From NCBI GenBank assembly GCA_963743885.1, contig CAVURJ010000001.1, positions 279,488 through 343,487 on the forward strand: DNA of 64,000 nucleotides, given 5' to 3'. This DNA is from Candidatus Moraniibacteriota bacterium (GTDB lineage Bacteria; Patescibacteriota; Minisyncoccia; Moranbacterales; UBA1568). The stretch's first letter is position 1; the number at the start of each line of letters is the position of its first letter. This document shows positions 2,730 to 29,926 of the stretch, one piece after another. Under the pieces are notes generated by a model. That model was not told the origin of the DNA. It saw nothing but the letters and a program-made list of their open reading frames with translations, and ran no database searches. The position numbers and the translations under genes are program-made.

Positions 2730-3980
2730 ATGTTGTATCTATACTCTCATCGCCGATCAACCAAGCACCGCCGATTCCTGCTCGCGGCCGCTTTGACGGC
2801 GGTTATTTCTGTTGGCTCGTACGTATTCTTCCGCAATCTGCCGCCTGCATCGCAGGATGAGGGGAAAAGAGCCGAAGAGGCGATATCCGAAGAGCAGGTG
2901 CCGCTCATCGAGTGGGTCGACCCAGATCCGGATTTTGGCAAGGATATGCCACAGTATGAGGTGGATGAGTGGCCGACGATTCCGATCCCGCCGGCGCCGG
3001 ATATGGCCCGCATGAAGCGGCAGGGGTGCGTGGCGGACGGTTTCCTTTCGGGCTATGGCGGCGATATCGACAGCTCCATCGCGCTCATCAATCGGTCGAA
3101 GTGTTACTATCTTCACCGGGCGCTCGAGACATGGCTTAAGCCGCCGGATTTCAAGTTGGCGAGGAAGATCCAGTCCAAGGTCACGAAGCCGAATACACTC
3201 TACGGCATGTTCATTGCGGAAGCTATTAGTACGAATGCTGATTACCAGTATCCGGCCGAGGACCGCGATTTCGATTTTAGCGAGATGTGTCGGCCGGGGA
3301 GTAAGAATTATTGGGGCGAACATACCTGCAAGCCGTCGCTTGATCGCAAGGAGTACCGTAAGTACCTGCACTATATCACCGAGCAGGCGATGGACATGGG
3401 TGTTCAGAGTTTCCTCTTCGGCCAGGTATTCTATCAGGATACGACGGAGTTCGAGCGATCAATCATGCCGGAAGTCATCCGAGAGATGCGTGAGTATGCC
3501 GATTTTCGCGGCATGAAGATCGTGATTGGCGCGCAGACGAACGATATCGTGGACGAACGGTATCTCAGGCTTTTCGATTTTATCGAAGGCGGCATCGGCC
3601 TCGGGTCGGATGGAAGCGTGGAAAGCGGGGCGTGCTTCTCGCGCTGGTGGAGCAAGCCCGGCGATTGGTGTTGGGCGCTCCTCTGGCATGACCGGTATGC
3701 CAAGAAGGCGAACAATGTTTTCCTTCACCTCGATTGGAGCGGCAAGATCGGCGATGATATGGACGTCTTCACCAAGATGGACAAGGATGAACGCGCCGCT
3801 GCGCTCAAGAAACTGTATACCTCCTTCACTTCGCGTGATTTCGGTTTCCTCATGCCGATGCTCGCGACACTCCACAAGGATGATGTCGGCTGCCGCGGTC
3901 CCAAGAAGCGCTTCTATTCTGCCAGCCGCAAGTATACGTGCCAGGATGAAGATGCTATCAATGTTATTTTGGGGAAATAG
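2730..3980 (+). CDS. Hypothetical membrane-anchored protein (N-terminal TM helix, large C-terminal domain)
   Basis: Long ORF. TM segment FLLAAALTAVISVGSYVFF just after the start; TATAAT at 2713-2718 precedes ATG 2730. No recognisable family. Confidence 0.55.
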   Translation: MLYLYSHRRSTKHRRFLLAAALTAVISVGSYVFFRNLPPASQDEGKRAEEAISEEQVPLIEWVDPDPDFGKDMPQYEVDEWPTIPIPPAPDMARMKRQGCVADGFLSGYGGDIDSSIALINRSKCYYLHRALETWLKPPDFKLARKIQSKVTKPNTLYGMFIAEAISTNADYQYPAEDRDFDFSEMCRPGSKNYWGEHTCKPSLDRKEYRKYLHYITEQAMDMGVQSFLFGQVFYQDTTEFERSIMPEVIREMREYADFRGMKIVIGAQTNDIVDERYLRLFDFIEGGIGLGSDGSVESGACFSRWWSKPGDWCWALLWHDRYAKKANNVFLHLDWSGKIGDDMDVFTKMDKDERAAALKKLYTSFTSRDFGFLMPMLATLHKDDVGCRGPKKRFYSASRKYTCQDEDAINVILGK

Positions 3981-4342: not shown

Positions 4343-4560
4343 TAGAAATAAAATCCGAAATCCGAAATTCTAAACACGAAACAAATCCTAATCTTGAAAT
4401 CCAAAACGAAAAACAAGGGTTTGAAATTTCAGTTTTTTGATTTTGAATTTGTTTAGAAATTAGGAATTAGATATTAGAAATTTCAAAAGCGATTGTTTTC
4501 GATAGGATTGTTTGATATCGATAGTGCAGAAGAAAAGAAAAACGGATATAAAAAGCCAAA
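4343..4560. repeat. AT-rich low-complexity intergenic repeat tract (aaatccgaaat / gattttgaattt k-mers)
   Basis: Shares k-mers with tracts at 15186-15326, 43545-43684, 48595-48692 and 48880-48920. Confidence 0.5.
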
Positions 4561-19385: not shown

Positions 19386-23003
<3,618 letters not shown>

Positions 23004-23126
23004 GAGCCCGCACCTCTCTTTTCTTCGCAAAACGCCCCTTCTGGGGCGTTTTCGCTTTTTGAGCGGAAGGGCGGTTCCGTGATATACTGCGGAAACAAGG
23101 TGATAACCTATGTCTTTTTCGTATAT

Positions 23127-25490
23127 ATGGGACGGAAAAAAAAGGTAGAAGAACCAGCGGAAGAAGAGTCTATCATCGAGGAGATCCTTCATAGCGATGC
23201 GAAGCGAAGCATCGCGGCGGTGTTTCTGTTCGCGTTCGCGCTCCTGTTTCTGCTCGCGTATTTCGATGCAGCCGGCATGTTCGGCGGCTGGCTCGATACC
23301 GGCCTCGGTATGGCGCTCGGCTATGGCAAGTGGCTGTTTCCGATTCTTCTCTTCGCGGCTGGCATCATGTTTCTCCGCCACCGGGAGACGACGCTGGCGG
23401 ACAAGATCCGCTTCGCTGGGCTGGTCCTCGGCTTCTTCTCGATCCTCGGGCTGCTCCATCTCTATAGCGGTGATGGGACGGATGAGCTCATGAAGGTGGC
23501 ACGCGCTGGCCACGGTGGGGGATTCATCGGCTTCGGCTTTGCGTATGTCCTCGGTACGTTCACTGGTACAGTCGCGGGGACTATCATCCTTTTGGCACTC
23601 TTCGCTTCAGGCATCATCGCTGCGTTCAATGTCTCGCTTGTGAGGGCCGCAGAGCGTCTGCGTGAGAAATTCCGGCGTGCACCTGCACCGGAGGAAGCAG
23701 CTATTCCGGAAGGAGAGGCAGCAGAGGAAGCGCCGGCAGAGACACCTACTATCGAAGAGGTCTTCCAGGATGTGCCGATCGTATCAGCCAATGCGCTCGA
23801 GGCGAACAATATCCGCAATTTGCAGTTCAATGATGACACCGCTCCGAAGGAGATCGAGGAGACCGGTGATGATGATGCATCCGAAGATGATGAACCGGAA
23901 GAGCAGCCAGTGAAGCGCCGCAGGCGCCGGAGCGGCTACCGCTGGGAGCTGCCGTCGATCGATCTGCTTGAATCGACGACTGGCCAGGCGGTTGGCGGCG
24001 ATACGGAGCGCAACAAACATATTATCCAGAGCACGCTCAAGTATTTCGGTATCGAGGTGGATCCAGGAGAGGTGCGCGTTGGTCCGACCGTGACGCAGTA
24101 TACGTTCCGGCCGGCTTTCGGCGTGAAGCTTTCCCGCATCACAGCGCTTTCCGATGACTTGGCGCTCGCACTTGCAGCCCAGTCTATCCGTATCGAGGCG
24201 CCGATCCCGGGCCAGTCGCTCATCGGCATTGAGATACCGAACAAATCCGTCGCGACGGTGCGGCTCAAAGAGATTCTCGGAAGCCGGGAGTTTAAAGAAC
24301 GCAAGTCGCAGCTTCTGACGCTCGTGCTCGGCCAGGATGTGGCCGGCAAGCATGTCTTCGGCGATCTGCGCAAGATGCCGCACGTCCTCATCGCCGGCCG
24401 TACCGGCTCCGGCAAGAGCGTGTGCATCAATACACTTATCCTCTCGCTCCTGTATCAGTCGTCGCCTGAGGACCTCAAGCTCATTCTAGTCGACCCAAAG
24501 CGTGTCGAGCTTTCCGCTTACAAAGGTATCCCACACCTGAAGACCGACGTCATCGTCGATAACAAGAAGGTGGTGAATGTGCTCCGTTGGGCCGTGGGCG
24601 AGATGGAACGCCGGTACAAGTTGCTCGAAGCCGTGCATGCGCGCGATCTCCTGACGTATCGTGAAAAGTGCGCTCAGGGCGAGATGCGGACGCTCGTGGA
24701 CGCTGAGACTGGTAAGGTGACCGAAGAGAATCTCGAGCCGCTCCCGTACATCGTGATCATCATCGACGAGATGGCGGACCTCATGGTGGCGCATGGCAAG
24801 GAAGTGGAAGCGCTTATCATTCGTCTCGCGCAGATGTCCCGCGCTATCGGTGTCCACCTCGTCTTGGCGACGCAGCGTCCGAGCGTTGAGGTCATCACCG
24901 GTCTCATCAAGGCCAACATTCCGACCCGCGTAGCCTTCCAGGTGACGACGCAGATCGATTCGCGCACCATCCTCGATACGGGCGGCGCGGAGAAGCTCCT
25001 TGGGAACGGCGATATGCTGTATTCTTCCTCCGATGGCGGCGATATCAAACGTCTTCAGGGTGTGTTTGTCTCTGACGATGAGGTGAAGCGCGTGACAGCA
25101 TTCCTCCGCAAGCAGAAGGAAGAGGCCGGCGAGGACGAGATCGGCGAAGATTTCGGCGGTGAGGGCGAGCAGACGAGCATCACCGAAGCTATAGACTCGC
25201 TTGATGAGGGTGCAGGCAAGGACGATCTCTACGAGAAGGCGAAACTCCTGGTTGTCTCTACCGGGCGTGCTTCGACGACGTATCTCCAGACAGCCCTCGG
25301 CGTGGGCTATCCGCGCGGCGCGCGTCTCATGCATCTCCTTGAGGAGAACGGCGTGGTCGGCATGATTGATGGCAAGAAGCGCGTGCTTATGAGCGCGGCA
25401 GCAGTGCCAGCCGAAGATGATGAAGACGTGAAGAAATATGGCGATGACCATCTCGCTGAGCAGCAGGATCGGGATAAGTGGCAGATGTAA
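23127..25490 (+). CDS. ftsK: DNA translocase FtsK/SpoIIIE
   Basis: N-terminal TM helices, Walker A GRTGSGKS, LATQRPSV, C-terminal gamma winged-helix (TYLQTALGVGYPRGARLMHLLEENGVV). Confidence 0.9.
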   Translation: MGRKKKVEEPAEEESIIEEILHSDAKRSIAAVFLFAFALLFLLAYFDAAGMFGGWLDTGLGMALGYGKWLFPILLFAAGIMFLRHRETTLADKIRFAGLVLGFFSILGLLHLYSGDGTDELMKVARAGHGGGFIGFGFAYVLGTFTGTVAGTIILLALFASGIIAAFNVSLVRAAERLREKFRRAPAPEEAAIPEGEAAEEAPAETPTIEEVFQDVPIVSANALEANNIRNLQFNDDTAPKEIEETGDDDASEDDEPEEQPVKRRRRRSGYRWELPSIDLLESTTGQAVGGDTERNKHIIQSTLKYFGIEVDPGEVRVGPTVTQYTFRPAFGVKLSRITALSDDLALALAAQSIRIEAPIPGQSLIGIEIPNKSVATVRLKEILGSREFKERKSQLLTLVLGQDVAGKHVFGDLRKMPHVLIAGRTGSGKSVCINTLILSLLYQSSPEDLKLILVDPKRVELSAYKGIPHLKTDVIVDNKKVVNVLRWAVGEMERRYKLLEAVHARDLLTYREKCAQGEMRTLVDAETGKVTEENLEPLPYIVIIIDEMADLMVAHGKEVEALIIRLAQMSRAIGVHLVLATQRPSVEVITGLIKANIPTRVAFQVTTQIDSRTILDTGGAEKLLGNGDMLYSSSDGGDIKRLQGVFVSDDEVKRVTAFLRKQKEEAGEDEIGEDFGGEGEQTSITEAIDSLDEGAGKDDLYEKAKLLVVSTGRASTTYLQTALGVGYPRGARLMHLLEENGVVGMIDGKKRVLMSAAAVPAEDDEDVKKYGDDHLAEQQDRDKWQM

Positions 25491-25566
25491 GAGTGCGGTT
25501 GAATCCACCCGTATCCTACTGATCCTTTGTTCTGTTGTTTGAAATTATCCGGATGCTGACCTAAAG

Positions 25567-25596
25567 AAAAGAGCCTCCTGTTTCGGAGGCTTTTCT
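25567..25596 (+). terminator. Intrinsic terminator after ftsK
   Basis: aaaagagcctcc-tgtttc-ggaggcttttctg. Confidence 0.6.
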
Positions 25597-25629
25597 GTAT
25601 TCTCGGATTTTTTATGTGGATTATGCTGA

Positions 25630-25665
25630 CTCTGCACAATATACAGCGGTCGTGGTATATTATGC
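25630..25665. promoter_or_regulatory. Palindromic operator-like site overlapping the -10 of the PaaX-like gene
   Basis: TGCACAATATAC-agcggtcgtg-GTATATTATGCA has inverted 12-mers matching 11/12. A near-identical copy is at 26390-26430. Confidence 0.5.
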
Positions 25666-25690
25666 ATAGGTGAATAGTGATACAAAAAAT

Positions 25691-26296
25691 ATGAAAAGAA
25701 AGAAAATTACAGAGAGTAAAAAGGAGGATGCGGAGAAGAAGCGGGAGCGTCGTGCAGATATCCAGCGCGTACTTCTCGGGGTCGTGGGTGCAGCGGGACT
25801 GCTCAGCCTCGTATTACTGGCGCCCAATGCTGTCCAGGTGCTCAAGCTATTCAAGAGGAGGAATCCGCGGTATCGTTCTCCTCGCTATATCAACGGTGTG
25901 GCCGGAAAGCTGCAAAAGAAAGGTTGGCTTCGGGTTGAGAGGCGTGGTGGCAAATCGTTTTTGCGGCTGACGGAAAAGGGTGAATGGGAGCTTCTGAAAT
26001 ACAAGTTGCAGGAAAAGACGCTTCAGAAGAAAAAATGGGACGGAAAGTGGCGATTGGTTATCTTTGACATCAAAGAATCGAAACGGCTGCTTCGTGATCG
26101 GATCCGAACGGATATCGTCACGTTCGGATTCGTGCGTTTGCAGGATAGTGTATGGGTCTATCCGCATGATTGTGAAGATCTCATCGTGCTATTGAAGGCT
26201 CACTGTAAGATCGGCAAAGAAGTTTTGTATGTGATATCCGAGAAGATTGAGAATGACGGTTGGCTTAAGAAAAAGTTCAGTCTTGTTTCAGAATAA
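25691..26296 (+). CDS. PaaX-family-like transcriptional regulator (wHTH plus PaaX_C-like domain)
   Basis: WDGKWRLVIFDIKESKRLLRDRIRTDIVTFGFVRLQDSVWVYPHD matches PaaX_C (WDGRWHLV..R..LR..L.W.GFG.L.DGLWVSP). wHTH-like LQKKGWLRVERRGGKSFLRLTEKG precedes it. Confidence 0.5.
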   Translation: MKRKKITESKKEDAEKKRERRADIQRVLLGVVGAAGLLSLVLLAPNAVQVLKLFKRRNPRYRSPRYINGVAGKLQKKGWLRVERRGGKSFLRLTEKGEWELLKYKLQEKTLQKKKWDGKWRLVIFDIKESKRLLRDRIRTDIVTFGFVRLQDSVWVYPHDCEDLIVLLKAHCKIGKEVLYVISEKIENDGWLKKKFSLVSE

Positions 26297-26389
26297 TAGA
26301 ATGCTCAGCACTCAACGGTCGTTGTAGAGTATGCAGCTGTTATGGCGACCAGGATAGAAAGTTAGTGAAAAAGTATGGTGGTGTGGTTG

Positions 26390-26430
26390 CTCTGCATAAT
26401 ACTTAGCGGTCGTGGTATGTTATGCAGTGG
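26390..26430. promoter_or_regulatory. Second copy of the palindromic operator-like site (with a half-site at 26318-26340)
   Basis: ctctgcataatacttaGCGGTCGTGGTATgTTATGCAgtggtg is near-identical to ctctgcacaatatacaGCGGTCGTGGTATaTTATGCAtaggtg upstream of the regulator. Confidence 0.5.
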
Positions 26431-26502
26431 TGTGGAGAATGGGAGAGTGGAAAAGAAACGGGAGGGAGAGAGGAAAATGGGAATTGTAGAGGGGCACGGT
26501 TT

Positions 26503-26532
26503 TTGACAAAAGCATCGGGGGGGGGTGATAAT
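26503..26532 (+). promoter_or_regulatory. Sigma70-type promoter (TTGACA-18-GATAAT) for the gene at 26561
   Basis: TTGACA at 26503-26508, 18 nt spacer, tGATAAT at 26526-26532. Confidence 0.5.
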
Positions 26533-26560
26533 GGGGGTATAATCCGTAGATTATCGAGAT

Positions 26561-27508
26561 ATGCCAGGATTTGAAGTCAGACAGAAGAATGATCCGAAAG
26601 CGGAACAGCGAGTAGATACGAGCTTTATCGATCTAGTTGAGGGGAGATTGGATAAGTCATCGGAACAGCCGTCTGATATGAAGGAAGCGGCACGGCAGGC
26701 AGAAGCTGCGCGTGCGGAAGTCGCCGAGCAGGCGGCAGCCCAAGAGTCGGCGGATGCGGCCGCGGCACAGGAGATACTCGCACGAATTAAGAGTACGCCG
26801 GATATGCGGTTGGATGTGGTTCCAGAAGATGGTCGCGTAGCTGATGGTGAAAAGGCTCTTGCTGAAGCATCTTTGATTAACCAGTATGTAGATAGGAGAA
26901 GCGCTGATGGTAAGCCGCTTGATGCTGAGGCATTGAGGAATCTAGGCCAGATGCAATCGGAAGAAGTCGATAAGAGAATCGCAGGCTTGAACACGGAAGC
27001 GGGAAAGAAATATCTGTCTGGTGAGTTATCGCCGGCTGTCGAGGTAACAGAACAGGTGGTCGAAGTCAAGACTGAGTCATTGCAGGAGTTGCCACAGGAC
27101 CCTGAAAGTATACAGGCTGGCGAGGAAGCGCTTGAATATGTCTCTGTAATCCCGGAGTCATGGAAAGGGGAAAATACGCGCAATCTTTCCATATCTGATA
27201 GGCGCGGGTTTGAAGCCGCCCTGGAGACGAAGAAATTTTCAAACAAGAATGTCCGGAGAAAGATTGCTTTGGCATCGGCTTCCGGCGCTTTAGCGTCTTT
27301 CGGCGGTGGCGCAGCGACTATGATTTTTCAAGGATCGGGTGCAGCGGCAGTAGCTGGTAATCTTACGCTCGGTGGTGCAATGATGCTCGGTGGAGCTGGC
27401 GGATTCCTCATTTTGGGGGCTGCTGGGTATGGTGCCAAGAAGCTTTGGGATAGGTATAAGGAACGGAAGGCGCGGAAGAATTTCGAAAAAGCTTCTGGAC
27501 GCGCGTAG
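26561..27508 (+). CDS. Hypothetical acidic protein with C-terminal glycine-zipper hydrophobic segment
   Basis: Long ORF. E/A/Q-rich N-terminal part; ASFGGGAATMIFQGSGAAAVAGNLTLGGAMMLGGAGGFLILGAAGYG Gly-zipper; basic tail. Confidence 0.5.
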   Translation: MPGFEVRQKNDPKAEQRVDTSFIDLVEGRLDKSSEQPSDMKEAARQAEAARAEVAEQAAAQESADAAAAQEILARIKSTPDMRLDVVPEDGRVADGEKALAEASLINQYVDRRSADGKPLDAEALRNLGQMQSEEVDKRIAGLNTEAGKKYLSGELSPAVEVTEQVVEVKTESLQELPQDPESIQAGEEALEYVSVIPESWKGENTRNLSISDRRGFEAALETKKFSNKNVRRKIALASASGALASFGGGAATMIFQGSGAAAVAGNLTLGGAMMLGGAGGFLILGAAGYGAKKLWDRYKERKARKNFEKASGRA

Positions 27509-27733
27509 AATAAGCTGGAGCGTTCGCATAGAGAGAGCATTACGAAAGTGATGTTCTTTTGCTTTTCTAAAAGGCTTTTCTGGTAGCGGAATATATGGTA
27601 CAGTGAAGGCAAATGTAACAGCTGTTTAGCTTGTAGTTGCATTGGCTTCGTTAGCTTTTTTACTCAAGAAAGCGGTGCGAACGGCTGGCTAATGAAGCTG
27701 ACGAAGCTAGAGAAGCTAATGAAGCTGATAACT

Positions 27734-28720
27734 ATGGTTGATTCCGGTTTTACCAGGAAAAAAGTTGAGTCGCTGACACTCGGGGAGAAGCTTCGGAAGC
27801 TCCGGAATGATTCTCGGACGAGTCTTCAGGAAGTCTCCAAGGCGACGCGCATCCAGGCGAAATATCTCGAGTCTCTCGAGAACGGCGAGTACGGCAAATT
27901 GCCGGCGGATGTCTATGTGCGCGGATTCCTTAGGAGCTATGCCCGCTATCTCAATATTGATGAGCAGGTCTTCATCCGGCTCTATGAGCGTGAGCGCAAT
28001 ATCCAAGCCAATCTCGGCCGCGATACAGGATCCGTTCATGCGAAGCGGGAAGTTTCCATCTCCTCGATTGTCATTACGCCGCGCGCCGTTGCCATAGTAC
28101 TGATCGCCTGTATGGTTGGCGGAGCTTTTTTCTATCTGTACCGAGAGTTCCGGAGCTTCACTTCAGCGCCATACCTCATCATTACTGAACCTGCGCAGAG
28201 TAGCACGGTCGCTTCCGGCGAAGTGGTGGTGCGCGGCAAGACCGATCGTGGCGCGCGGCTCTCCATCAACGGACAGTCGGTTTTCGTAGGCGATGACGGT
28301 AGTTTTTCCGAGGCGCTCCTCTTACAGCCTGGGCTCAATATGGTCTCTGTGGTGTCGGTCAATCGTTTCGACAAGGAACGGACCGAGACGATCGCGATCG
28401 AAGCCGAGTATATTCCGGTTCCGGCGGACCAGTCATCTGAAGGGGCAGTTGTTTCTGGAGAGACATTTTTCATCGAGATTTCTGTCGAAGGGGAGGCGGC
28501 GAATGTGTCGGTCCTGGCTGATGGCGTGGCGGTTTTTTCCGGCCAGGTCCGGACGGGCGAGATGAAGCGCATCGAGGGGAAGGAGAGAATTGAAGTGACG
28601 TCCGATCATGGAGAGCGCACGTTTGTCACTGATGCTACTGGCAAGCGGCAGGTCTTGTCGGAAACTGCCGGATTGGCTAAGGATAAAGCTTTTTTCCCGA
28701 CAGAGAAAAAAGAAGAATAG
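27734..28720 (+). CDS. RodZ-like cytoskeleton protein (XRE-type HTH, TM, DUF4115-like C-terminus)
   Basis: LGEKLRKLRNDSRTSLQEVSKATRIQAKYLESLENGEY HTH, a single TM, and a beta-rich C-terminal domain. Start set at ATG 27734 because 27690-27733 is a GAAGCT tandem motif also found in 5' UTRs elsewhere. Confidence 0.6.
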   Translation: MVDSGFTRKKVESLTLGEKLRKLRNDSRTSLQEVSKATRIQAKYLESLENGEYGKLPADVYVRGFLRSYARYLNIDEQVFIRLYERERNIQANLGRDTGSVHAKREVSISSIVITPRAVAIVLIACMVGGAFFYLYREFRSFTSAPYLIITEPAQSSTVASGEVVVRGKTDRGARLSINGQSVFVGDDGSFSEALLLQPGLNMVSVVSVNRFDKERTETIAIEAEYIPVPADQSSEGAVVSGETFFIEISVEGEAANVSVLADGVAVFSGQVRTGEMKRIEGKERIEVTSDHGERTFVTDATGKRQVLSETAGLAKDKAFFPTEKKEE

Positions 28721-28888
28721 GCTTTTGTGCTTGAGGTATAGACAGGATTTCAGCATGTATGTTACTATGTAAGTGAAGTAAACAAGAGAGTTTATAAAGT
28801 TTTTCAAGTTCCTAAAGTTTATAAAGTCCTCACACTCTCTACAAACTTGATAGACTTTATAACTTTATAAACTTATAAATAAAATACT

Positions 28889-29926
28889 ATGGCCAAGGAA
28901 ACAAAGCCGGCGGCAGGGGAGAAGAACAAGATCGATAGCGTGCTCGATGCTATCCAAGAGAAGTACGGCGAGGGGATGATGATGAAGCTCGGCGATGTCC
29001 GCAAGGTGGACGTGGAGGTGATCCCGTCCGGCTCGATCTCGCTCGATATCGCGCTCGGGATCGGCGGCGTGCCACGTGGTCGCGTCATCGAAGTGTACGG
29101 TCCGGAGTCATCCGGCAAGACGACGCTTTCGCTCCATATCGTAGCCAATGCTCAGCGAGCAGGCGGCGTAGCGGCGTTTGTGGATGCCGAGCACGCGCTT
29201 GATCCGGAGTACGCCAAGCGTATTGGTGTGAATATCAATGATCTGCTCATCTCGCAGCCGGACAACGGCGAGCAGGCGCTCGATATCGTCGAGACGCTCG
29301 TACGTTCCAATATGGTGGATGTGATCGTCGTCGACTCGGTGGCGGCACTTGTACCGAAGGCGGAAATCGAGGGTGAGATGGGGGACCAGCATGTCGGCCG
29401 CCAGGCGCGGCTCATGTCGCAGGCGCTCAGGAAGCTCACGGCGATCATCGCCCGTTCCAACTCGACGGTCATCTTCATCAATCAGATCCGTATGAAGATC
29501 GGCGTCATGTTTGGCAACCCGGAGACGACGACCGGCGGCAACGCACTCAAGTTCTATTCGTCCGTTCGTCTCGAGGTGCGCCGCAGTGCGCAGATTAAGC
29601 GCGGCGAGGAAATTGTCGGCAACCGCACCAAAGTGAAGGTGGTCAAGAACAAGGTAGCAGCCCCGTTCCGCACCGCGGAATTTGATATCATGTATAACGA
29701 GGGTATCTCGCATGCGGGTGACACGCTCGATACAGGTGTCCAGTATGAAGTCGTCAAAAAATCAGGAAACTCGTTCGCATATGGCGAGGTGAAGCTCGGC
29801 GTGGGTCGCGAGAACGCCAAGAAGTTCCTCAAGGAGAACCCGAAGATCGAGAAGGAGATTGAGAAGGGGATCTTGAAGCAGGTGAAGGACGGCGTCGTGA
29901 AGGTGAAAGCCGAAGTCGCTGAATAA
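28889..29926 (+). CDS. recA: Recombinase RecA
   Basis: [10 protein letters not shown] Walker A and full-length RecA conservation. Confidence 0.95.

Follow-up and report, generated by a model that had tools for sequence, protein, structure and literature searches.

The closest described system is PaaX, the phenylacetyl-CoA-responsive regulator of Escherichia coli and Pseudomonas (8A39, TIGR02277), which has a winged helix and, behind it, a Cas2-like middle domain (PF20803). The operator of E. coli PaaX is TGATTC-N27-GAATCA (39 bp), and by steric hindrance the protein represses its own promoter, Px (PMC9493321). In a 2026 survey of the phenylacetic acid (PAA) pathway, the PaaX architecture is described as rare outside paa clusters, and PaaX is not among the findings for Patescibacteria (PMC13186573). 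Here, we analysed a stretch of 64,000 nucleotides from a Candidatus Moraniibacteriota bacterium (Patescibacteriota; contig CAVURJ010000001.1, positions 279,488 to 343,487), hereafter called the window, in which the gene of a PaaX-like regulator of 201 amino acids (aa) is flanked on both sides by copies of a long palindromic site. We consider it likely that this protein is an autorepressor with an auxiliary downstream operator: it would be a truncated PaaX-type regulator that sits as a dimer on a three-part operator of ~38-42 bp. In the literature that we searched, no paper links PaaX with Cas2, Patescibacteria or the candidate phyla radiation (CPR), and none describes the family to which this regulator belongs, called mini-PaaX below, or its regulation.

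The regulator is encoded by an open reading frame (ORF) at 25691-26296 on the + strand. An earlier note, made on this stretch from its letters, had described the protein as PaaX-like with a Cas2-type fold and had suggested a profile search as a check. Indeed, Pfam assigns residues 114-186 to PaaX_M (PF20803; 76.6 bits for a cut-off of 24, E = 1.6e-21) and not to an unrelated family, and the best structural match of Foldseek is E. coli PaaX (8A39, E = 9e-6), followed by 3L09 and Rv0674 (3KFW), then by Cas2 and winged-helix structures. The same note had called the C-terminal domain PaaX_C-like, and this has to be corrected: the matching domain is the central, Cas2-like one, Pfam finds no PaaX_C, and the protein ends at residue 201, right behind the Cas2-like domain. 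The winged-helix family of PaaX, PF07848, is matched weakly and over residues 74-97 only (17 bits, cut-off 24.8). In NCBIfam, the PaaX equivalog TIGR02277 reaches 57.4 bits for a cut-off of 264.55. Cas2 profiles are matched weakly as well (TIGR01573 with 23.6 bits for a cut-off of 24.5, Pfam PF09827 with 19 bits and E = 0.0016 for a cut-off of 23.8, and the Cas2 profile of PADLOC at 8.9e-6), and these near-cut-off scores account for the many relatives that are named "Cas2" in public records. Altogether, the regulator consists of the first two domains of PaaX without the third, and is neither the PaaX equivalog nor a Cas2 of clustered regularly interspaced short palindromic repeats (CRISPR) systems.

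The AlphaFold2 model of the monomer (predicted local distance difference test, pLDDT, 83.8) comprises a complete winged helix at residues ~1-95, with the recognition helix at ~64-76, a linker helix at 95-111 and a Cas2-like domain of beta-alpha-beta-beta-alpha-beta topology at 114-195. The modelled N-terminal domain has an alpha-beta-alpha-alpha-beta-beta topology and matches winged-helix proteins such as AspA (TM-score 0.75-0.81). A profile of 34 family members also matches 8A39 (1.4e-6), with residues 59-153 aligned on 56-148 of the structure, the alignment spanning the recognition helix up to and including the first strands of the Cas2-like domain. The short PaaX-like proteins Jannaschia 3L09 and Mycobacterium tuberculosis Rv0674 have this two-domain fold as well (ranks 2-6 in Foldseek, with E = 2e-3 to 6e-3), but they are longer (234-253 residues resolved) and only 13-17% identical to the regulator. 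In the Cas2-like domain, Asp117, Asp126 and Glu129 are invariant; Cas2 has a conserved Asp in beta1 with which Asp126 aligns, and neither Asp126 nor Glu129 is conserved in E. coli PaaX. Residues 24-46, which follow a very basic N-terminus, are strongly hydrophobic (Kyte-Doolittle 19-residue mean up to 2.38) and resemble a signal anchor. Since AlphaFold2 folds this stretch inside the complete winged helix, as helix 1, strand 1 and helix 2, at a lower confidence (pLDDT 63-74), membrane anchoring was rejected.

The 34-bp palindrome that the earlier note had seen on both sides of the gene is borne out: its pattern matches the window exactly twice, at 25633-25666 and 26393-26426, and not once in 100 dinucleotide shuffles. 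A repeat search returned a 43-nt direct repeat in three copies, at 25630-25672, whose arms are 87% complementary, at 26299-26341 (63% identity) and at 26390-26432 (84%). When the 64 kb were scanned with a position weight matrix (PWM) built from nine sites of this window and three orthologs, only three sites, named U, D1 and D2, were found, the next best score being at the level of shuffles; a scan of the window for the generic site architecture of the family returned U and D2 only. Site U, a 42-bp dyad at 25629-25670 (PWM score 57.2; best of the shuffles below -5), has the core GCGGTCGT at 25646-25653 and outer boxes at 25632-25639 (CTGCACAA) and 25660-25667 (TTATGCAT). Within it lies the predicted sigma-70 promoter of the regulator (25633-25661, + strand), with a -35 box TGCACA at 25633-25638, a spacer of 17 nt, an extended TG at 25653-25654 and the -10 box TATATT at 25656-25661; the overlap of palindrome and -10 box that the note had pointed out is thus correct.

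Site D1 (26298-26339) begins 2 nt past the stop codon, has a PWM score of 41.5 and 63% identity to U, and carries the core ACGGTCGT at 26315-26322 with a degenerate left outer box. A half-site had been read at 26318-26340; a site is present there, but it is a full, though degenerate, one. Site D2 (26389-26430) is an extra U-like copy, 84% identical to U, with the core GCGGTCGT at 26406-26413. The cores of U, D1 and D2 all read (G/A)CGGTCGT in the same orientation, and the spacing is 669 bp for U-D1 and 760 bp for U-D2. We considered D2 as a partial duplication of U together with the 5′ end of the gene and rejected it, the similarity not clearly extending past the site.

The site pair is kept beside close orthologs, a point on which the earlier note had made its reading depend, and across the family. 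In each of five independent loci with orthologs of 67-82% identity (L001, L002, L004, L118 and L119), one site lies over the promoter and one shortly past the stop codon, at 2-8 nt in four of them and at 19 nt in L119. As the D1 position is present in the orthologs, D1 is the canonical downstream site, and D2, without counterpart in any of them and seen in this genome only, is an addition particular to it. TGCAYA, ACGGTCGT and TRTGCA are common to both kinds of ortholog sites, while the extended -10 element TGGTATAYT is intact in all U sites and decayed in D sites. Gene order around the unit differs: the window (19386-29926) has rpoC, ftsK, the regulator, a gene for a glycine-zipper protein, rodZ and recA; L002 has rpoC, the regulator and the glycine-zipper gene; L004 has rpoC, a glycine-zipper-like gene, a 67-aa gene, the regulator, a 200-aa gene, ftsK and rodZ; and in L119 the regulator is followed by ftsK. 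Throughout these differences the site-gene-site unit is intact.

This arrangement extends to a large family. A word-indexed search returned more than 1,600 family proteins, and in an exhaustive search 618 representative clusters, formed at 50% identity, scored E <= 1e-30. Species-representative genomes contain at least 592 such loci, and all of them seem to be Patescibacteria. Several genomes have two copies; one paralog (P0028, 51% identical) lies on the same contig of 652,564 bp, outside the window. Paralogs within one genome are ~45-50% identical and each has its own arms. For a distant set of 80 loci at 40-52% identity (78 non-redundant), candidate sites were chosen by palindromicity and U/D similarity alone. 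In 61 of the 78 loci both picks share a centre type, CG-GT/GA/GG-CG or GC-TATA-GC, and at least one such site is present in most of the remaining loci and in nearly all hold-out loci. The centre type (TATA or CGNNCG) was tried and dropped as a clade marker, mean protein identity being the same within and between classes (0.43). Over 474 kb, 107 of 111 family-type sites fall within the short flanks of the regulator gene, a ~370-fold enrichment.

The downstream site tracks the stop codon of the regulator (median ~42 bp to the site centre) and not the start of the neighbour, and ~40% of the downstream neighbours are convergent. The U-D distance has a median of 660 bp and shows no helical phasing (Rayleigh p > 0.06 for periods of 9.5-12), none being expected at ~660 bp. 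No conserved partner gene was found: an all-against-all BLAST of the neighbours gave 113 singletons, and the small recurring groups are housekeeping genes. The neighbours, in either orientation, are aminoacyl-tRNA synthetases, topA, rnhA, recJ and similar genes.

We then compared the anatomy of the sites, with offsets counted outward from the dyad. Offsets 1-4, the core, are conserved across loci, the G at offset 3 being partly set by our selection filter. Symmetry is 54-71% at offsets 5-10, where the two copies of a locus agree at 67-76% of positions, and 84-92% at offsets 11-18, where U and D of one locus agree at 79-90% and unrelated loci at 28-55%; beyond offset 19 it falls to background. 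The outer boxes, of 8 bp, are thus specific to each locus. The dip at offsets 5-10 is equal in U and D sites and is therefore not caused by the -10 box, which is found as a hexamer at offset 6-7 in 21 of 61 U sites versus 2 of 61 D sites. D sites are not significantly better palindromes than U sites. A dimeric protein with three zones of contact would be expected to give such a footprint, and a hairpin would not. In 21 of the 61 loci a start codon lies at U offset 18-20, 6-7 nt past the -10 box (e.g. L079 2923-2964, L051, L064 and L065), which suggests that these 21 regulators are made from leaderless mRNAs that start at the operator edge, the ATG being part of the outer box.

Protein and site also vary together. 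When alignment columns were compared with half-site bases by permutation z-scores, the recognition-helix region (59-77) and the outer box gave the highest mean z of all region pairs (1.51 vs 0.59-0.97). Near-identical recognition helices pair with near-identical boxes, and Glu at the position of Arg65 of the window protein goes with GT at offsets 16-17 in 11/11 loci. The strongest single pair joins residue 132, which lies in the Cas2-like domain at the first turn of alpha1, to core offset 4: Lys occurs with C in 75/80 half-sites and Arg with T in 108/164 (locus level, discovery set, Fisher p = 1.6e-7). Twenty hold-out loci follow the same rule, with 26/34 half-sites for Arg-T and 13/16 for Lys-C (p = 9e-7). 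The switch at residue 132 is seen between relatives that are 66-84% identical, such as L014/L023 and L020/L025, and its recurrence in close relatives speaks for the Cas2-like domain touching the core directly. The covariation within this three-part operator thus points to a reading of bases by the Cas2-fold domain.

We propose the following model. The regulator would dimerise through its Cas2-like domain, the central Cas2-like pair reading the family-conserved core (here G/ACG-GT-CGT) and the two winged helices reading the locus-specific 8-bp outer boxes, 11-18 bp from the dyad. A conserved Cas2-like pair and core combined with variable helices and boxes fits the widely spaced operator of PaaX, the only one described so far, and the autorepression of PaaX at Px. 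As U covers both the -35 and the -10 box of the regulator's own promoter, binding would shut off its transcription by occlusion, as PaaX does at Px. D1, which is promoterless, with D2 as an extra copy, would most likely be an auxiliary operator. Since the D site is free of a promoter and is placed behind the stop codon regardless of which gene comes next and in which direction it points, its job probably concerns the regulator unit itself. It may raise occupancy at U through a loop of ~670-760 bp, or it may act as a roadblock to read-through at the unit boundary, insulating the unit from neighbouring transcription; neither a phasing signal nor a difference in site strength separates the two options.

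Several observations weigh against this model. Binding, repression and the role of the D site are inferred from sequence, and looping has no positive support beyond geometry, given that the U-D distance is not phased and that D sites are not better palindromes. Offsets 5-10, although less symmetric than offsets 11-18, exceed the symmetry expected by chance. The two copies of L019, and likewise those of L066, have arms that differ in a compensatory way, each copy being still palindromic, and these changes also fit hairpin selection or quasipalindrome correction. The covariation statistics are not fully corrected for phylogeny, as close loci share helix and box by descent. The invariant acidic residues hint at a metal site or a catalytic role that a repressor would not explain. 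Finally, a regulator whose sites were confined to the flanks of its own gene would lack an obvious output, which would be odd for several paralogs in a genome of ~0.65 Mb.

There is also a bolder proposal, which we regard as unlikely: the Cas2-fold domain would read DNA and the site-gene-site units would be unrecognised self-contained elements of Patescibacteria that go beyond autoregulated repressors. If this is true, residue 132 of alpha1 and the invariant acidic and basic residues would engage the conserved CG-NN-CG core, and the units could serve in sequence-specific nicking or recombination at the core or as transcriptional insulators among housekeeping genes. Either role would link the duplex-platform function of Cas2 with the evolution of transcription factors.

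The earlier note had joined the regulator and the glycine-zipper gene behind it in one repressor-target module. This gene (26561-27508, + strand) encodes a 315-aa protein that is, as the note had said, acidic with a Gly-rich hydrophobic end (pI 4.6 for the first 232 residues, followed by 83 Gly/Ala-rich hydrophobic ones), and its strong promoter, TTGACA-18-GATAAT at 26503-26532 on the + strand, is also as described, with 11/12 positions matching. That D1 and D2 control this gene, by blocking read-through or from a distance on its promoter, seems doubtful to us. Read-through could occur, as the search for + strand terminators returned none from the regulator stop to 26560, D2 is an extra site facing the gene, and the L002 ortholog keeps the same downstream gene, as judged from promoter and 5′ end; moreover, in a few loci a flanking site opens a neighbouring ORF, of 158 aa from an ATG at the D-site edge in L083 and of 976 aa, divergent, from the left edge of U in L019. 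Nonetheless, the downstream gene is a neighbour and not a conserved partner: it is different in L001 and L004 and replaced by ftsK in L119, and across the family the neighbours are unrelated housekeeping genes, many of them convergent, with a D site placed by the stop codon and not by the neighbour's start. No site overlaps the gene's own promoter, the centre of D2 lying ~94 bp upstream of its -35 box. The 315-aa protein belongs to no Pfam family, and its single homolog among 5.8 billion proteins (L117 431-1369, 43% identity) has neither a regulator gene nor a site in the 430 bp upstream. The module claim is thus not upheld; as far as the compared loci tell, the conserved unit is site-gene-site and not regulator-target, while read-through control of the downstream gene is possible in this particular genome.

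A selfish or mobile cassette of ~700 bp, in which the palindromes would be recombination or cleavage sites and a Cas2-like nuclease would act at the core, after the manner of IS200 and REP/RAYT elements with their gene enclosed by hairpins at both ends, is in our view improbable. The strict site-gene-site unit regardless of neighbours, the several paralogs per genome, the differing gene order around the 67-82% identical orthologs, the invariant D117, D126 and E129, with D126 at the Cas2 beta1 Asp position, and the occasional extra or solitary sites (L025, L033) would all suit it. However, same-genome paralogs are too divergent for recent copying and have their own arms, no dispersed copies exist in the 64 kb, and the orthologs remain in the rpoC-rodZ neighbourhood. 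Neither Pfam nor NCBIfam reveals a histidine-hydrophobic-histidine (HUH), transposase or integrase domain, and no HUH motif is found among the invariant residues. Besides, U is built into the promoter and the start codon and D is not, an asymmetry that is expected of regulation and not of transposon ends. Still less probable are protein-independent hairpins, acting as a terminator or stabiliser in the 3′ untranslated region, as an attenuator or as a cruciform, even though the half-sites that repressors typically have are shorter than these arms of 15-19 bp, the predicted folds have -12.6 kcal/mol for U (z = -2.8) and -12.7 kcal/mol for D2 (z = -2.2) and the arm changes in L019 and L066 are compensatory. 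Indeed, the -10 box lies inside U, most of which is therefore not transcribed; symmetry dips beside the would-be loop, the opposite of a stem; G:T arm mismatches are not in excess over A:C (U p = 0.68, D p = 0.20); and the canonical D1 has a predicted RNA fold no more stable than its shuffles (z = 0.17). Several loci have an ordinary terminator behind the D site, the recognition helix and the arms co-vary, and no Rfam family is matched at threshold. As to a genuine CRISPR Cas2, as which many relatives are annotated, its chances are negligible: the weak Cas2 profile matches and the Cas2 structures among the fold matches speak for it, but the TIGR01573 and Pfam scores are under the curated cut-offs, the protein is fused to a winged helix with PaaX as its best match, and the locus has rpoC, ftsK, rodZ and recA as neighbours, with no cas1 and, in the repeat search, no CRISPR-type array. 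The hairpin and the genuine-Cas2 explanations are thus contradicted by these tests, and autorepression with an auxiliary operator remains the one that we favour.

The other features around the unit concern its borders and neighbours. Upstream, the intrinsic terminator of ftsK (25569-25594, + strand; a 10-pair stem with 5 GC pairs, then a T-rich tail) is predicted to separate the regulator unit from upstream transcription; further neighbours are rpoC, a RodZ-like gene and recA. Sub-threshold Rfam matches at 25564-25717 on the - strand (a Phe leader, 33 bits vs 55, and a ctRNA) overlap the hairpin of this terminator and are most likely chance matches to it. Downstream, the promoter spacer of the glycine-zipper gene holds a run of nine G (26517-26525). 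A G9 run is also present in L002 (4899-4907), between TTGACA and TATCAT, and in L004 a G11 run (3044-3054) lies between TTGCCA and TATTAT; the gene downstream of it encodes 169 aa with a similar MPNF start and a Gly-rich membrane tail. Phase-variable promoters classically show a homopolymer of varying length between their -35 and -10 boxes. Apart from a start of the type MP(G/E/N)F or MSDF, the genes downstream or in the vicinity in L001, L002 and L004 have nothing in common with the 315-aa protein.

Additional sites were seen in a few places. In L033 (2339-2847), four sites with the same arms, 134-185 bp apart and each followed by a purine-rich tract, occupy a 500-bp non-coding stretch upstream of the regulator, the usual downstream site being present as well. 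In the window, D2 is followed by a GGGAG-rich tail (26431-26490), and the two together resemble a smaller version of the L033 array. L025 has a third site at ~4455-4496, 873 bp past the stop codon and beyond an RNase H gene. A metagenome scan with the site pattern gave 31 matches, nearly all of them chance hits on unrelated GC-rich contigs and only one, L115, adjoining a family gene, which makes the scan uninformative on a wider regulon. Two matches, L109 3952-3993 and L111 2406-2447, are palindromic in part, with 14 and 13 of 21 pairs formed between their arms, and have no family gene on the contig examined; they could be solitary sites or chance.

With respect to known systems, the regulator shares with Cas2 the ferredoxin-like fold of residues 114-195, in which the Asp at the end of beta1 is kept. 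In the Cas1-Cas2 integrase, the Cas2 dimer is the central duplex-binding platform, and the proposed contact of the Cas2-like pair with the operator core would parallel this role. Cas2 itself is a stand-alone protein of ~90 aa found beside cas1 and a CRISPR array, unlike the regulator with its fused winged helix, and the DNA contact proposed here, between residue 132 and core offset 4, would be base-specific. A frequent annotation error is hereby corrected, as "orphan Cas2" calls in Patescibacteria belong by the hundreds to this family of fused winged-helix and Cas2-like domains. Other parallels concern the site-gene-site layout. Repetitive extragenic palindromic (REP) sequences with their REP-associated tyrosine transposases (RAYT), and IS200/IS605 elements, are also ~700-bp units with one small gene, for an RNA-recognition-motif (RRM)/ferredoxin-like domain, and a palindrome at each end. 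They differ from mini-PaaX by their HUH/Tyr transposase and by dispersed identical copies, of which none was found in the 64 kb; here, it is the centre of the palindrome that is conserved and not its flank, and the upstream palindrome doubles as a promoter.

A functional analogy can be drawn with looping repressors, among which lambda CI has OL and OR flanking cI, LacI has O1, O2 and O3, and GalR has OE and OI. In these systems too, at least two operator copies a few hundred bp apart bracket the repressor gene or promoter, one at the promoter and the other promoterless. Their folds are unrelated to that of mini-PaaX, whose second operator lies right behind its own stop codon family-wide, and oligomerisation and looping are putative for mini-PaaX. 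Whether it serves looping, insulation or another purpose, the placing of operators on both sides of the gene, kept across very divergent paralogs, is an unusual design, and the fact that the sites seem to lie almost only at the gene's own flanks bears on what such regulators control in a 0.65-Mb genome.

The comparison with PaaX remains the most direct one. Both proteins have a long operator with widely spaced inverted half-sites over their own promoter, of 39 bp in PaaX and apparently of 34-42 bp here, and occlusion of that promoter, described for PaaX, is predicted for the regulator. E. coli PaaX has 316 aa versus 201 aa here, the missing part being the C-terminal helical domain that is reported as the ligand-binding part of PaaX, and its associated paa genes have no equivalent near the regulator or near other family members. 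The regulator would thus be a PaaX-type repressor, but a truncated one without relation to aromatic catabolism, whose gene lies between its own operators. Two features belong to mini-PaaX: an operator on each side of the gene, and a conserved operator core that co-varies with the Cas2-like domain. We know of no structure of a PaaX-DNA complex, and the three-part operator together with the covariation of residue 132 and the core predicts how PaaX-type repressors sit on their unusually long operators. The family thereby offers, for uncultivated ultra-small bacteria, a testable regulator-operator pair with a partial recognition code.

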